This document shows, one piece after another, positions 13,129 to 51,497 of a stretch of DNA of 64,000 bases (the stretch's first letter is position 1; each line of letters begins with the position of its first letter). The stretch comes from Lachnospiraceae bacterium. GTDB taxonomy: Bacteria > Bacillota > Clostridia > Lachnospirales > Lachnospiraceae. The notes beneath the pieces are model-generated. The model worked only from the letters and a program-made list of their open reading frames with translations, had not been told where the DNA came from and did no database searches. The stretch covers positions 1,613 through 65,612 of the forward strand of contig JAZQCK010000038.1 of NCBI GenBank assembly GCA_045546255.1, in the 5' to 3' direction. The position numbers and the translations under genes are program-made.

Positions 13129-13158
13129 TTGTATATTCTTTTCTTTTGGTAGTATACA
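13129..13158 (+). promoter_or_regulatory. candidate promoter of peptide-mRNA module A (TTGTAT-N18-TATACA)
   Basis: The same sequence and spacing are conserved upstream of modules B and D. The spacer is suboptimal, so this is tentative. Confidence 0.35.
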
Positions 13159-13213
13159 ACTATTTTATCTGTATACGTTTGTTAAATATTTAGAAAAATC
13201 TAAAATAATAACT

Positions 13214-13481
13214 GGTGCTGCCTTAGCACGGTAGGTGGTTAGCCCTCCCCTCGGAGGGACTGTGACCCTCCGCTTATATAGAGTGATCTTGTGAAAGGAG
13301 GGCTAAGCCAATGAACGTAATTGACATAATTGCTGTGATCAGTTTTACACTGACATGCTTTCTTGCCGGTTACAGCATCGGCAAAAGATAGTAGTAAGAC
13401 ACAGAAATGACCGCCCCCTGCTCGGATGGCGGTCATTTCATTTTTGACCATAATCAGGGCTAACCGTCTATCGGCAGCACC
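13214..13481 (+). ncRNA. structured small-peptide transcript (type I toxin-like mRNA), module A
   Basis: 5' arm GGTGCTGCC..GGTTAGCCC is complementary to 3' arm GGGCTAACC..GGCAGCACC, which is followed by T5. Contains a perfect hairpin at 13252-13272, an anti-SD TTAGCCCTCC matching SD GGAGGGCTAA, and a GC hairpin at 13404-13439. Confidence 0.5.
13311..13391 (+). CDS. 26-aa hydrophobic peptide MNVIDIIAVISFTLTCFLAGYSIGKR (toxin-like)
   Basis: GGAGGG lies 8 nt upstream. Compared with the paralogue at 51275 there are 5 synonymous and 2 conservative codon changes. Confidence 0.55.
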   Translation: MNVIDIIAVISFTLTCFLAGYSIGKR

Positions 13482-13489
13482 TTTTTCGT
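13395..13489 (-). ncRNA. predicted antisense sRNA of module A
   Basis: Inferred from the consensus promoter at 13496-13524 and from the shared hairpin followed by a T-rich tract on the minus strand. Ends are approximate. Confidence 0.4.
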
Positions 13490-13495
13490 ATCTAA

Positions 13496-13524
13496 ATAAT
13501 ACTTTTATATCAGTGATAAGTCAA
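13496..13524 (-). promoter_or_regulatory. sigma-A-type promoter TTGACT-N17-TATTAT directed into module A
   Basis: Identical hexamers and spacing occur at the same relative position in modules B and C. Confidence 0.6.
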
Positions 13525-40964: not shown

Positions 40965-41356
40965 ATGTCTTCTCTTTCTTCATAAAAATATCTGCCGCAA
41001 TCATAACAAAAATGAATATTGTTGACAATTTTCCAAAAAACAAATTGCTTTTAACTACAATTAAGGCTCCCTTTTTATAATCCCCTCAAAAGTTGAAACA
41101 AATGAAAGGAGTTACAAAACTATGACAGGAAATACATTATGTCTTCAGAATATGAATGAATATAGAACTGGTGTCTTCACCGAAAGAAAAAGCAAAAGCA
41201 AGGCGAAGATTGCAAGCAAAAACAAGGACTCTCGCAAGCAAAGATATTTCTGCCTTCCAGGCCAAGACGAAACGACATTAACAGAACTGCTGCTGATCAC
41301 GCAGTACCGATTCTTTAGAGGTTAATATATCATTTTCATTTCTCTCCCTTTCCAAA

Positions 41357-41386
41357 ACAAAACTCTGCACTATTGCAGAGTTTTGT
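41357..41386. terminator. hairpin ACAAAACTCTGCA/TGCAGAGTTTTGT at the left border of module B
   Basis: 13-bp stem with T-rich flanks on both strands. An analogous GC-rich hairpin lies at the left border of module D. Confidence 0.5.
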
Positions 41387-41416
41387 TTGTATATTTCACT
41401 TTTTTGGTAGTATACA
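41387..41416 (+). promoter_or_regulatory. candidate promoter of module B (TTGTAT-N18-TATACA)
   Basis: Same hexamers and spacing as module A. Confidence 0.35.
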
Positions 41417-41472
41417 CAGTTCTTTTATGTATACGTTTGTCGAATATATTACCGGATGTTACCATGATTTTT

Positions 41473-41794
41473 GGTGCTACCTTAGAACGGTAGGCGGTTA
41501 GCCCTACGTTGTACGCTATTACACTAAGCCTCAACTTTGTTTCGGCAAGTGTAATATGTGTCCCTACGGAGGGACTGTGACCCTTCGATCAGATAGAGAA
41601 ATCTTGAGAAAGGAGGGCTGCGATATGACAGTGATTGATATTCTGACTATTATCACGTTTGTCGTTGATATTTTTGCTGCAGGATTCGCTGTCGGCAGAT
41701 ATATTGAAAAACACAGAAATGACCGCCACTCGATAAAGTAAGGCGGTCATTCTGATCACTTTCTAATTCGGGCTAACCGTCTATCGGTAGCACC
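41473..41794 (+). ncRNA. structured small-peptide transcript, module B
   Basis: The 5' arm GGTGCTACC..GGTTAGCCC pairs with the 3' arm GGGCTAACC..GGTAGCACC, which is followed by T6. The G-to-A change relative to module A is compensated by C-to-T. An extra hairpin is inserted at 41517-41555. Confidence 0.5.
41625..41741 (+). CDS. 38-aa peptide MTVIDILTIITFVVDIFAAGFAVGRYIEKHRNDRHSIK (toxin-like: TM helix plus charged tail)
   Basis: GGAGGG lies 7 nt upstream. The N-terminus is homologous to the module A/C peptides. The track ORF 41556-41741 is the same frame with a spurious 5' extension. Confidence 0.5.
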   Translation: MTVIDILTIITFVVDIFAAGFAVGRYIEKHRNDRHSIK

Positions 41795-41807
41795 TTTTTT
41801 ATTTTCT
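41705..41807 (-). ncRNA. predicted antisense sRNA of module B
   Basis: Promoter at 41814-41842. Hairpin at 41716-41752 followed by TGTGTTTTTC on the minus strand. It would overlap the last 37 nt or so of the peptide ORF. Confidence 0.4.
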
Positions 41808-41813
41808 AAAAGT

Positions 41814-41842
41814 ATAATAAAGTGACAGAGACAGAAAGTCAA
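41814..41842 (-). promoter_or_regulatory. sigma-A-type promoter TTGACT-N17-TATTAT directed into module B
   Basis: Identical to modules A and C. Confidence 0.6.
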
Positions 41843-41854
41843 GCTACCCACTCG

Positions 41855-42988
41855 TCAGTACCGATTATGCACTTTCTCGGCAAAGCACATCAGGTCTTTG
41901 ATCTGCACAACAGTGCCGTCGTCTAAGATGGCCTTGCCGTTCATCCTGCCAAACACCTGATGCTGGTCAGAAACCAGAACTTTAAAATCTAGCTTTGCAG
42001 CGCGGTCTAATACCGGTGTGAACTCCGTCTCGAAGCGACCGTCCGAAGAGGTGAACGTCCATGGATCCATATAGCCACTCTCCGGAATATGGAACGTGAT
42101 GTCATCGAGCTTATGCACCACGCCGTTATAAAAAAGTACATTCTCTGTCGCAGCCTTCGTGTTGCCAAAGCCGTATCCAATGTTGAAACCAAAAGCATTG
42201 CCGTTGATGTCCTGGTTGCCGGATCCCCAGTACCAGGTGTTATCATAGGTCCAAACGCCGCGTCCCCAATCCAGCGTCCCAAAGTCCGTCTGCGGATCAA
42301 ACTCATACCGCACACCGTCATACTCCATATAGCCGGACGCACGCATGCAGTTAATTTTCTGATTATAATAAAAGGCGTGCTTCTTGTCCCACGGCGTCGC
42401 GATCACCATGGAGTCCATCGTCGGCTGCTCCAAAACAATGTCGCAATCGAAGGCCTTGCCCTCATAAAAACGTTCAAAGTGGCAGGTGATGTGGCGCGTC
42501 CCCTCTTCAACAGCAAAGCACATCTGCAGCCGCTTGTCTTTATACTCGGTAACACCGGCCGAAGAATCGGATGGCAACTTCAGCTTTCCCATTGGAAAAG
42601 CATTCAGCACCGTCTCCGTATGCTCCCATGGCTTCCCGGCAGACTTTGTTTCATCAGCATTCTGCGATTGCCCGGCAGACTTTGCTTCATCAGCATTCTG
42701 CGATTGCCCAGCAGACTTTGCTTCCCCATCTGTCCCATTTGCACCATCAAAGCACAGGAGCGACACTGACTGCAGCCCGATATAGCCGTCGTCGGAAATC
42801 GTAAACGCCCCGGCGAACTTTTCATTCAGAACAAGATAGTAATCCCATTCCTTAATCCGCATCTTTGGCGCCTTGATTTGCGCCCGGTCATATTGCTGCA
42901 CCAAGGAGCGCGACCATCCGGGCTCCCGAAGCTCGCCCTCGCTATTCAGCAGCGGCTGCCTATTCACAACTTCATGATTCCTTGCCAT
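41855..42988 (-). CDS. DUF2804 domain protein with an inserted low-complexity repeat
   Basis: Start set at MARNHEVVNRQPLLN with AAAGGAG upstream. The 47-aa 5' extension in the track runs into the tandem array. Confidence 0.7.
   Translation of the reverse strand: MARNHEVVNRQPLLNSEGELREPGWSRSLVQQYDRAQIKAPKMRIKEWDYYLVLNEKFAGAFTISDDGYIGLQSVSLLCFDGANGTDGEAKSAGQSQNADEAKSAGQSQNADETKSAGKPWEHTETVLNAFPMGKLKLPSDSSAGVTEYKDKRLQMCFAVEEGTRHITCHFERFYEGKAFDCDIVLEQPTMDSMVIATPWDKKHAFYYNQKINCMRASGYMEYDGVRYEFDPQTDFGTLDWGRGVWTYDNTWYWGSGNQDINGNAFGFNIGYGFGNTKAATENVLFYNGVVHKLDDITFHIPESGYMDPWTFTSSDGRFETEFTPVLDRAAKLDFKVLVSDQHQVFGRMNGKAILDDGTVVQIKDLMCFAEKVHNRY
42638..42727. repeat. 36-bp x2.5 in-frame tandem repeat inside the DUF2804 gene
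   Basis: ggcagactttg[t/c]ttcatcagcattctgcgattgccc repeated. Encodes (KSAGQSQNADE[A/T])n. Confidence 0.8.
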
Positions 42989-43004
42989 CCGTCGCTCCTT
43001 TCTG

Positions 43005-43377
43005 CACGTTTTCATGCATTTCATACTCTCCGATGCACGTTTTTGGCGATTGTGCCTCCTCCGCTTTTTGTTTAAAGCTAGAGTCCTCAACCCCTTAGCA
43101 GTCACAACCGCGATTTTCGTGCATTTCACTTACCCAGATGCACGTTTTTGGCGGTTGTGACTCCTCCGCTTTTTGTTTAAAGCTAAAGCCCCCGAGACCC
43201 CAACAGGCACAACCGCGATTTTCGTGCATTTCACTTACCCAGATGCACGTTTTTGGCGGTTGTGACTCCTCCGCTTTTTGTTTAAAGCTGGAGCCCTCGG
43301 GACCCCAACAGGCACAACCGCGATTTTCGTGCATTTCATACTCCCAGATGCACGTTTTTGGCGGTTGTGACTCCTTC
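43005..43377. repeat. 105-bp tandem repeat, about 3.5 copies, each with a long imperfect hairpin
   Basis: ATGCACG recurs at 43033, 43138, 43243 and 43348. The unit contains CACAACCGC...CGTGCAT..ATGCACG...GCGGTTGTG. Confidence 0.85.
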
Positions 43378-51135: not shown

Positions 51136-51215
51136 ATTCCGTATCCTTGTCTCTTTCTTACTACCGCAATTATAACATGCAAATATCATTTCGCATATTT
51201 CTATAAGCCTCGCAC

Positions 51216-51451
51216 CGGAGGGACTGTGACCCTTCGATCAGATAGAGAAATCTTGAGAAAGGAGGGCTTAGCCAATGAATGTAATTGACATAATAGCTGT
51301 GATCAGCTTTGCGCTGACCTGCTTCATTGCCGGTTACAGCATCGGCAAAAGATAATCCATAAATACACAGAAACGACCGCCATTCCTGAATAAGATTGCG
51401 GTCGTTCTGTGCCAAAATATCAATTCGGCCTAACCGTCTATCGGTAGCACC
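51216..51451 (+). ncRNA. structured small-peptide transcript, module C (5' arm missing)
   Basis: Hairpin at 51216-51236, SD GGAGGG at 51261, hairpin at 51370-51407 with a compensated T-A to C-G change, and 3' arm GGCCTAACC..GGTAGCACC. Confidence 0.45.
51275..51355 (+). CDS. 26-aa hydrophobic peptide MNVIDIIAVISFALTCFIAGYSIGKR (toxin-like)
   Basis: Paralogue of the 13311-13391 peptide. The differences are mostly synonymous. Confidence 0.55.
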   Translation: MNVIDIIAVISFALTCFIAGYSIGKR

Positions 51452-51462
51452 ATTTATCTTCT
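51360..51462 (-). ncRNA. predicted antisense sRNA of module C
   Basis: Promoter at 51469-51497 and a shared hairpin followed by TGTGTATTTAT on the minus strand. Ends are approximate. Confidence 0.4.
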
Positions 51463-51468
51463 AAATGA

Positions 51469-51497
51469 ATAATAAGATGAGAGCGGCAGAAAGTCAA
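51469..51497 (-). promoter_or_regulatory. sigma-A-type promoter TTGACT-N17-TATTAT directed into module C
   Basis: Identical to modules A and B. Confidence 0.6.

Follow-up and report, generated by a model that had tools for sequence, protein, structure and literature searches.

A Lachnospiraceae module with end-to-end mRNA pairing and a convergent antisense gene, probably a type I toxin–antitoxin-like cassette

Introduction

What could be the role of a 38-residue reading frame carried by an RNA whose two ends are complementary and which faces a convergent promoter? This question is raised by module B (about 41405–41842), one of three module copies (A, B and C) in a 64,000-nt stretch of the genome of a Lachnospiraceae bacterium (contig JAZQCK010000038.1 of assembly GCA_045546255.1), hereafter called the window; coordinates are positions in this 64-kb window unless prefixed by the name of another locus (e.g. 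L183). The motifs that a first-pass annotation had described for module B were all recovered within 0–2 nt of the places it gave, for a chance expectation of none. We propose that module B is probably a type I toxin–antitoxin-like cassette, belonging to a new family of the bsrG/SR4 architectural type.

In the 296-nt bsrG mRNA, nt 1–35 pair with nt 232–262 to form a helix from which stem-loops branch off; the Shine–Dalgarno sequence (SD) is held in a 4-bp helix that reaches 8 bp upon SR4 binding, RNase III decay being promoted; the stop codon is placed within a stem-loop, and the long helix is immediately followed by the terminator (PMC3834814). According to T1TAdb, Gram-positive type I families all have a 3'-overlapping antisense RNA (PMC8594479), and a 2019 review states that, in Clostridia, type I systems had been experimentally described in C. 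difficile only (PMC6563280).

Results

Homologs were sought with a genome scan for the exact words GGGACTGTGACCC and AAGGAGG separated by a gap of 20–35 nt, using one genome per species, and with a metagenome scan anchored on the two arms only. Counts come from the matches listed in these two scans, and the totals are thus lower bounds: at least 117 stretches, at least ~113 of them clear homologs, in the genome scan, and at least 120 further loci, many of which are labelled human gut, with more subfamilies, in the metagenome scan. The hosts named among the matches listed are nearly all Lachnospiraceae (Acetatifactor, Eisenbergiella, Roseburia, Petralouisia, Blautia, [Clostridium] symbiosum and Eubacterium plexicaudatum ASF492), with some Selenomonadaceae, such as Schwartzia succinivorans. 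The family is undescribed, with no Rfam, Pfam or NCBIfam match and no paper found. At the Rfam gathering threshold the whole window gave no match and 15 loci gave none inside the module; at E ≤ 10, module B and the canonical locus L042 gave sub-threshold matches to unrelated families only. Literature searches by peptide string, taxon or topic returned no description of the family.

A canonical member begins with a promoter (TTGAAA-17 nt-TGGTAGTAT), the 5' arm (GGGACUACC-AGGAU-GGUAGGCGGUUAGCC) and CCUCYC. The leader goes on with the hairpin P2 (CGGAGGG ACUGUGA CCCUCCG), the single-stranded UUUACAUAGAAA, the hairpin P3 and the SD AAGGAGGG; next come an open reading frame (ORF) of 32–36 codons, a hairpin that covers the stop codon, an AU-rich linker and the 3' arm GGGCUAACCGUCUAUCGGUAGCUCC. 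Some members then have a separate terminator, and the convergent promoter comes last. In the commoner of the two family variants, a U-run directly follows the arm and the antisense −10 box lies 10–22 nt from it.

The 5' and 3' ends of the sense RNA form a 25-bp helix, which is a strand-specific RNA pairing supported by covariation in an alignment of 99 distinct sense sequences (A2), including those of B and A. The first-pass annotation had described a 9-bp helix; this outer part is present, and it is prolonged by a 16-bp inner part, which in B joins GGTAGGCGGTTAGCCC to GGGCTAACCGTCTATC. First, 94.9% of the cells of the alignment are paired in the drawn structure (about 98% in the inner helix), as compared to 32–47% when the 3' partner is slid by 1–3 columns. 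Second, double changes occur in 26 pairs, as compared to 11.5 ± 1.7 in column shuffles, none of 500 shuffles reaching 26; they include 7 of the 9 outer pairs and 8 of the 16 inner ones, and one outer-helix position displays six pair types (GU 33, UA 21, GC 12, AU 9, UG 5 and CG 2). Third, RNAalifold, which received the alignment as its sole input, returned the same end-to-end helix, along with P2, P3, the stop-codon hairpin and an SD-sequestering CCUC/GAGG helix; the alignment and folding of homologs that had been recommended at the outset thus led to the same structure. Fourth, in the minimum free energy (MFE) structures of the sense RNAs the two ends are again joined, by the 25-bp helix in B (−131 kcal/mol; z = −8.06 against shuffles) and by the corresponding long helix in A (−108.5 kcal/mol; z = −6.6).

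The G-to-A change in the 5' arm of B and the C-to-T change in its 3' arm, which had been read as compensatory, were found where they had been placed. They make a true compensated pair because A carries GGTGCTGCC and GGCAGCACC where B carries GGTGCTACC and GGTAGCACC; in the alignment this pair (columns 12/390) is AU in 59 sequences, GC in 20, GU in 13 and other in 7. Pairing at the level of RNA or of a DNA cruciform had both been envisaged. The former stands, and the latter does not: two G·U pairs are near-invariant, in 99/99 sequences (columns 34/377) and in 90/99, and since a fixed G·U is an A·C mismatch on the opposite strand, the constraint bears on the sense RNA.

Both arms are imperfect palindromes that could fold locally, which makes a switch between local and long-range pairing plausible. 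At the 5' end the annotation had paired GCTACC with a GGTAGG lying 8 nt downstream. This partner exists, but GGTAG starts 7 nt after GCTACC and pairs over 5 bp; the resulting CUACC/GGUAG hairpin, 95.7% paired, is compatible with the switch that had been suggested, with one covarying pair from a single clade and an A·C mismatch in three sequences. At the 3' end the hairpin GCUAaCCG/CGGUAGC is 93% compatible, one of its pairs being AU in 68 sequences and GC in 12. As a U-run directly follows this hairpin in the three window copies and in the majority of metagenome members, it would there be the sense terminator.

The predicted antisense promoter and terminator are conserved family-wide. Downstream of the 3' arm, on the minus strand, the best promoter has a 17-nt spacer in 97 of the 102 distinct sequences of the genome set and a TG-extended −10 box in 80 of the 102; its mean score of 10.4 exceeds those of the sense orientation (7.7) and of shuffles (8.1). 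In the metagenome set, the −35 box is TTGACA in 54/99 and TTGACT in 17/99, and the −10 box is TG-extended in 87/99. These figures agree with the earlier view that the antisense hexamers and their spacing are under selection. In the window, TTGACT, TATTAT and the 17-nt spacing are identical in A, B and C, as had been noticed; the spacers themselves had been called unrelated, which holds for that of A, but those of B and C are identical at 11 of 17 positions.

The stop-codon hairpin (94.8% of cells paired, e.g. GC 74 and AU 21 at one pair) is followed on the minus strand by a U-rich tail of the UUUUGUGUCUU type in 110 of 124 cases, and by UUUCUGUGUUUUUC in B, where it is the predicted antisense terminator. 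The sequence ACACAGAAATGACCGCC is retained in three different reading contexts (A, B and canonical copies): ACACAGAAAU(G/A)(A/G)CCGCC encodes K-T-Q-K-stop in canonical copies and H-R-N-D-R in B, and belongs to the 3' untranslated region (UTR) in A. It is therefore conserved at the RNA level, as a putative antisense terminator on which the peptide tail is overprinted. In B, the ORF does run into this hairpin, with its stop codon in the loop, and the predicted antisense RNA (~41807 to ~41700; two hairpins, z = −5.16) overlaps the last ~14 codons of the ORF, in keeping with what had been reported. Its 5' part, GAUAGACGGUUAGCCC, reproduces the 5' arm in Watson–Crick form, differing from it at just the two G·U positions, and the antisense RNA should therefore out-compete the 5' arm for the 3' arm. 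Judged from these signals, a cis antisense gene of the kind that characterizes the type I class is predicted in the module: it possesses a promoter and a terminator of its own and overlaps the toxin mRNA.

The ORF is under purifying selection, pN/pS being 0.08 in 35 distinct 32-codon genes and 0.15 in 36 distinct 34-codon genes, and variation is concentrated at third positions, which vary in 29 of 31 codons. Across the peptides the Kyte–Doolittle maximum over 19 residues is ~1.85–2.24 (2.24 in B), a transmembrane (TM) level, and B has the TM helix followed by a charged tail that was initially described. With 26–38 amino acids (aa), these products correspond to the coding hydrophobic peptides of less than 60 aa found in the type I class. 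They share a consensus of roughly M-x3-5-L-I-x-V-x6-F-x-L-G-Y-x2-G, continued by a polar or basic tail. The exact peptide of B corresponds to one unnamed NCBI entry, and a database of 5.8 billion proteins holds 115 matching clusters, all unnamed or annotated "hypothetical protein".

Covariation is also seen in the leader. P2 (98.8% of cells paired) covaries across subfamilies (CACAGG/CCUGUG, CACAAG/CUUGUG, CCGGA/UCCGG, GCAAG/CUUGC and CAGAG/CUCUG), while its loop is ACUGUGA in one subfamily and AGUUAUAG in a second one; P3 is missing from A, B, C and the metagenome locus L183. Across 223 modules, the SD covaries with the segment that follows the 5' arm (anti-SD): AGCCCUC pairs off with GGAGGG(C/G/A), AGCCUUCUCC with GAGGAGGUU, AGCCUCCUAU with UAGGAGG (UAGGAGGAUU), and AGCCUCCAYC with AAGGAGGUUU. 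When the 3' arm of L042, A and B was blocked in constrained folds to mimic antisense binding, the outer 5' arm of L042 and A folded locally, and GGUUAGCCCUCC paired with GGAGGGCUgAgCC over ~12 bp covering the SD. In all constrained-fold states of B, the predicted partner of the SD is the 3' strand of P2, CCCUUC.

Two further ideas about the leader were set aside. The near-invariant single-stranded UUACAUAG between P2 and P3 of canonical members contains UACAU, the cleavage motif of the Bacillus MazF/EndoA enzyme (PMC6562991). As a MazF/EndoA site this stretch was rejected, AUAG alone being universal: A has UAUAUAG, and B (41592–41598) and C have CAGAUAG, without UACAU. The P2 loop ACUGUGA might also have formed a pseudoknot with the conserved CACAG ahead of the stop-codon hairpin; this idea was dropped, though not rigorously examined, because the loop is AGUUAUAG in the second subfamily and the CACA-type tail is nonetheless kept.

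Module B is a diverged copy of the family cassette. In the window GGTRCTACC has three matches, versus 0.17 expected; A is a full copy, as announced, whereas C, which had also been counted as a copy, lacks the whole 5' arm. The closest relative of B among the loci listed is L183, to which it is 80% identical in the upstream region and 5' arm, 88% from P2 to the SD and 83% in the 3' UTR; both loci have the GTATACA-N11-TGTATAC palindrome and the TTGACT-N17-TATTAT antisense promoter. From this comparison, B differs from its relatives in four ways. First, it carries a 53-nt insertion, unique in the window and absent from A, C, L183 and every other aligned homolog. The inserted hairpin that had been delimited at 41517–41555 exists and is present in the MFE structure of B, but its stem comprises 9 bp (41517–25 with 41548–56) within a larger insertion. 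Second, the insertion splits the canonical anti-SD, which in B reads CCCUAC instead of CCCUC. Third, the TM part of the B coding sequence is only 56–58% identical to those of A, C and L183; by these identities, the B peptide cassette has diverged far more than its RNA chassis. Fourth, B has TAT at the position of the TAA stop codon of L183, so that the frame runs on for 12 codons to the stop in the hairpin loop.

The peptide of B had been presented as longer. It is longer than those of A, C and L183 (26 aa), but the usual length in the family is 32–36 aa, so that A and C are the short outliers and B is not the unusually long one. The 38-aa layout with the stop codon in the loop also occurs in the Roseburia loci L006 and L047 (...GRIVERLINSKNNRR), and long-tailed forms are therefore a real sub-branch. 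It was observed that A (13375–13410) and C (51339–51375) stop after 26 codons at IGKR-stop, and that another frame of A still reads ...DSSKTQK-stop, as in canonical members. A status of frameshifted pseudogenes for A and C was rejected, as L183 keeps the 26-aa ORF with a conservative K-to-R change (IGRR-stop). From these sequences, the 26-aa form looks like a maintained variant rather than a product of decay.

Discussion

We propose that module B would operate as follows. A sense mRNA of ~330 nt would encode a single-pass membrane peptide of 38 aa, and its first ~32 nt would pair with the last ~25 nt ahead of the U-run, thereby closing the molecule. The SD would be held in a short helix, whose partner would be the CCUC-type segment in the family and the 3' strand of P2 in B, because the insertion disrupted the anti-SD of B. 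The convergent promoter just past the 3' end would produce an antisense RNA of ~105 nt that ends at the stop-codon hairpin and is fully complementary to the mRNA from the 3' arm through the linker into the last ~14 codons. As this RNA would form Watson–Crick pairs at the two positions where the 5' arm pairs as G·U, it would displace the 5' arm, which, once freed, would lengthen the SD helix to ~12 bp in canonical members and in A, by pairing of the 5' arm onto GGAGGGCU. The mRNA–antisense duplex would be a substrate for RNase III, as in bsrG/SR4. On escape from this control, probably after mRNA processing, the peptide would be toxic to the membrane.

In its predicted form, the module resembles bsrG/SR4 of the Bacillus subtilis SPβ prophage region in many respects: a 38-aa hydrophobic product, an mRNA of ~300 nt closed by an end-to-end helix, an SD in a short helix, a stop codon in a stem-loop, and a convergent antisense gene over the 3' part. 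The BsrG-type mRNA architecture (closing helix, short SD helix, 3'-overlapping antisense) is thus found in the family as an architectural resemblance only. The module differs from bsrG/SR4 by its longer 5' UTR (~95–150 nt, with P2 and P3), by the use, in the variant present in the window, of the 3' arm itself as the sense terminator stem, by the size of its predicted antisense RNA (~105 nt, versus 183 nt for SR4), and by its hosts, Lachnospiraceae and Selenomonadaceae. Homology to BsrG/Hol_Tox, suggested by the N-termini (MTVID... and MTVYE...), was rejected: an hhalign comparison of the family profile with BsrG gave a probability of 0.6%, and Hol_Tox matched none of 30 peptides at E ≤ 10. As a reference, the BsrG sequence was confirmed in SPβ and matched Hol_Tox (PF16935) with E = 1.8e-8; no nucleotide similarity to the module was seen at the SPβ locus.

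We also put forward, tentatively and with more doubt than belief, a stronger version of this proposal, in which the family would be a new type I lineage built on a three-way strand exchange among the 5' arm, the 3' arm and the antitoxin RNA. The antitoxin would copy the 5' arm, which would be the weaker competitor because it pairs with the 3' arm through the conserved G·U; the 3' arm would double as terminator; the displaced 5' arm would re-target the SD; the peptide tail would be overprinted on the antitoxin terminator; and the module would be a possible insertion site. If so, peptide cassettes of 26 to 38 aa could be exchanged on a single RNA chassis thanks to the overprinting of the tail, and integrase-bearing elements may insert or recombine preferentially at the module.

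Several points weigh against a toxin–antitoxin-like cassette. Transcription, toxicity and antisense action of the module would here follow from sequence, and its sense promoter in B is a weak match to the consensus. The SD is sequestered in every modelled state. In the wider sampling, one outer-helix position has an A·C mismatch in 45 of the 99 sequences, so that compensation is not universal. In the genome set, the invariance of the P2 loop and SD partly reflects ascertainment by the search pattern, which the arms-anchored metagenome set corrects in part. As regards the peptides, Pfam at E ≤ 10 gave no Hol_Tox, Fst/Ldr, TxpA, Hok or other toxin family for those scanned, and NCBIfam, PHROGs and PADLOC gave nothing significant. 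Finally, peptide conservation within subfamilies is above what is usual for type I toxins, and many copies occupy a fixed chromosomal site after guaA, both of which would suit a housekeeping small membrane protein.

These last points lead to the alternative that has to be taken most seriously, although we regard it as unlikely, namely that the same RNA architecture serves a non-toxic small membrane protein, a regulator or a complex subunit, kept at low or conditional levels by the closure of the mRNA and the antisense RNA. The strong purifying selection, with near-identical peptides across genera, the post-guaA position, the ordinary genes around the window copies and the lack of a toxin-family match would all be understandable in that case. 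We nevertheless favour a type I toxin–antitoxin-like cassette on the following grounds. First, multi-copy and tandem occurrence, adjacency to integrases and swappable cassettes on one chassis typify type I toxins. Second, the architecture is that of a proven toxin system (PMC3834814). Third, the tail variants of 26, 32–36 and 38 aa speak against a precise protein–protein interface.

Alternatively, the 5' UTR (P2, the UUACAUAG stretch and P3) might be a ligand- or protein-sensing leader of the small ORF, the convergent promoter being incidental. The very high nucleotide conservation of the 5' UTR, with its near-invariant unpaired stretches, could be explained in this way, as could the SD sequestered in all modelled states, from which a trigger would be needed. 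This is very improbable, as no Rfam match was found, the P2 loop is wholly different between subfamilies, P3 is missing from A, B, C and L183, AUAG alone is universal in the single-stranded stretch, and conservation of the antisense promoter and terminator does not depend on the leader. Lastly, conservation at the DNA level, whether as a repeated element, as a site where integrative elements recombine or attach, or as an inverted repeat forming a cruciform, is hardly credible: modules do abut the 3' ends of tyrosine integrase genes in 13 loci and follow guaA in 15, the 5' arm is replaced in C, L048, L101 and L047, and the B insertion comes with a 7-nt duplication, but the near-invariant G·U pairs are A·C mismatches on the other strand, covariation keeps pairing and not sequence, the ORF varies in a codon-position-specific manner, 5 matches were obtained in 2.9 million viral contigs, and no recombinase lies near the window copies.

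With regard to other type I systems, the covariation-supported long-distance 5'–3' pairing typical of hok/Sok is found in the family (99 homologs, RNAalifold). In hok, according to what Franch, Gultyaev and Gerdes reportedly established in 1997, such pairing locks the full-length toxin mRNA in an inert form with a sequestered SD. A passage on aapA1/IsoA1 of Helicobacter pylori describes the same end-to-end locking principle (PMC6733600). The module shares with hok/Sok (plasmid R1) and aapA1/IsoA1 the closure of the mRNA, the sequestered SD and metastable local hairpins. In contrast, their antisense RNAs target the 5' or initiation region and bind the 3'-processed mRNA only, and their hosts are Gram-negative, whereas the predicted antisense RNA of the module lies over the 3' arm and the last part of the ORF; the antisense gene being at the 3' end, a hok-type antisense against the 5' leader is absent. 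In Pfam the family peptides have no Hok match.

The fst/RNAII system (par of pAD1; Fst/Ldr) has in common with the module a peptide of ~33 aa, whose TM helix is N-terminal and whose C-terminal tail is polar or charged, and convergent transcription, predicted for the module, with overlapping 3' ends. In par, functional pairing involves 5' direct repeats outside the overlap, and one bidirectional terminator is shared; in the module, the pairing would be the overlap itself and there would be two separate terminators. Two species that we take to be Lachnospiraceae, Clostridium bolteae and C. asparagiforme, are relevant in this respect. Fst-like and TxpA-like ORFs have been reported in both (PMC6563280; PMC2887945).

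The C. difficile pairs CD2517.1/RCd8, CD2907.1/RCd9 and CD0956.2/RCd10 are convergent overlapping genes with long complementarity, which suggests degradation (PMC6563280). They are type I modules of Clostridia in which, as in the proposed cassette, toxin and antitoxin genes converge and overlap; they differ from it, by description only, in their toxins of 50–53 aa with lysine-rich tails and in their association with CRISPR arrays and prophages. These toxins have no sequence homology to type I toxins found elsewhere, and the review that says so does not mention Lachnospiraceae (PMC6563280).

The family is abundant and multi-copy in gut Lachnospiraceae, among them commensals of mice and humans that have been cultured. 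Carriers available in culture are Acetatifactor aquisgranensis DSM 110981 (L073), Eisenbergiella porci (L023), Petralouisia muris (L028), Schwartzia succinivorans DSM 10502 (L020) and Eubacterium plexicaudatum ASF492 (L078). Its helix covariation is unusually strong, which makes it a model for end-to-end mRNA closure and antisense refolding in anaerobic Gram-positive bacteria. The module is a candidate for marking or stabilising mobile elements and offers compact RNA switches, and at least ~230 loci, overlooked by current pipelines, can be annotated with a defined ORF, its sense and a predicted antisense RNA.

Genomic context and minor features

Tandem pairs of modules occur at several loci. 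The three window copies lie amid ordinary chromosomal genes, with no recombinase nearby. A 38-kb integrated element between A and C, with C as a duplicated partial target, was ruled out because there is no recombinase and the neighbours of A and C are ordinary chromosomal genes (thpR-like and arsC/spx-like). Phage carriage was likewise rejected, just five viral contigs with the module having been matched among 2.9 million.

Among loci L001–L117, the module lies ~135 nt downstream of guaA in 15 cases (e.g. L071); in 13 cases (e.g. L017), a tyrosine integrase gene of the other strand ends right at the antisense promoter of the module; and serine recombinases are near a few loci. The 5' arm is swapped for unrelated sequence in C of the window, L048, L101 and L047. 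There are hints that the module might be a recombination or attachment hot spot. The Roseburia 38-aa module of L006 is preceded, at ~55 nt and on the other strand, by a DUF3800-XI RNA (L006:5740–5787; Rfam RF02975, 68.8 bits), and in L047 the outer 5' arm is replaced by sequence from just upstream of that same Roseburia module.

Table 1. Positions of the features of modules A, B and C in the window.
Feature	Position	Strand	Comment
Terminator-like hairpin, left boundary of module B	41355..41388	+	terminator scan: 15 pairs then T-rich tail
Extended −10-like TGGTAGTAT (41405-13), overlapping the palindrome GTATACA-N11-TGTATAC (41410-34)	41405..41434	+	candidate distal sense promoter with operator
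Proximal sense promoter candidate TTGTCG-N17-TACCAT	41437..41465	+	read from sequence; 8/12 consensus positions, under scan threshold
Outer 5' arm GGTGCTACC	41473..41481	+	partner 41786-41794
Inner 5' arm GGTAGGCGGTTAGCCC	41489..41504	+	partner 41770-41785 (GGGCTAACCGTCTATC); first 5 nt alternatively pair with CUACC 41477-81
B-specific 53-nt insertion	41509..41561	+	9-bp hairpin 41517-25/41548-56; flanking direct repeats CCCTACG 41502-08 and 41562-68
P2 hairpin CGGAGGG-ACUGUGA-CCCUUCG	41567..41587	+	3 copies in window
SD GGAGGG	41612..41617	+	7 nt ahead of ATG; base-paired in all predicted states
38-aa ORF MTVIDILTIITFVVDIFAAGFAVGRYIEKHRNDRHSIK	41625..41741	+	single TM helix then charged tail
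Hairpin over ORF end	41716..41752	both	stem 41716-27/41742-52; stop codon in loop
3' arm GGGCTAACCGTCTATCGGTAGCACC	41770..41794	+	pairs with 5' arm or self-folds (GCUAaCCG/CGGUAGC) as sense terminator stem
U-run right after 3' arm	41795..41800	+	predicted sense RNA 3' end
Convergent antisense promoter TTGACT-N17-TATTAT	41814..41842	-	promoter scan, unprompted
Predicted antisense RNA, ~105 nt	41700..41807	-	5' hairpin with GAUAGACGGUUAGCCC, linker, terminator hairpin; ends from promoter/terminator signals
Module A, full copy	13152..13524	+	palindrome 13152-76; 5' arm 13214-22 and 13230-45; ORF 13311-13391, 26 aa; 3' arm 13457-81; antisense promoter 13524-13496
Module C, 5'-truncated copy, without 5' arm or anti-SD	51211..51497	+	P2 from 51211; ORF 51275-51355, 26 aa; 3' arm 51427-51; antisense promoter 51497-51469

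Module B thus has two candidate sense promoters, and we can only infer from the sequence which of them is used. The distal one has a −10 box of the TGGTAGTAT type, which canonical homologs employ; use of the proximal one would place the 5' end of the RNA at ~41472, just ahead of the 5' arm, and in canonical homologs the −10 box lies 7–10 nt ahead of this arm. The GTATACA-N11-TGTATAC palindrome occurs twice in the window, upstream of A and B only, for none expected. It stands ~60 nt upstream of the 5' arm in both modules, and likewise at L183:2008–2032; outside the window, it was seen in L183 only, among the 243 loci fetched by then. It looks like an operator specific to the A/B/L183 sub-branch.

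At the left boundary of module B, L183 has a hairpin at the same site, with another stem sequence. On the minus strand, an SD-like GGGAGAG followed by ATG is conserved between B (41330–41345) and L183 (L183:1930–1947); in B the ORF has just five codons (MKMIY-stop), and this stretch may be a remnant or the start of a divergent gene or leader. On the other side of module B, a 424-aa ORF (41855–43129, minus strand) contains an in-frame tandem duplication of 36 nt (42635–42724; 2.5 copies, 96% matches). Upstream of this ORF, positions 43009–43375 hold 3.5 intergenic tandem copies of a 105-nt unit (90% matches), which has no Rfam match and of which each copy bears an inverted repeat of ~25 nt.

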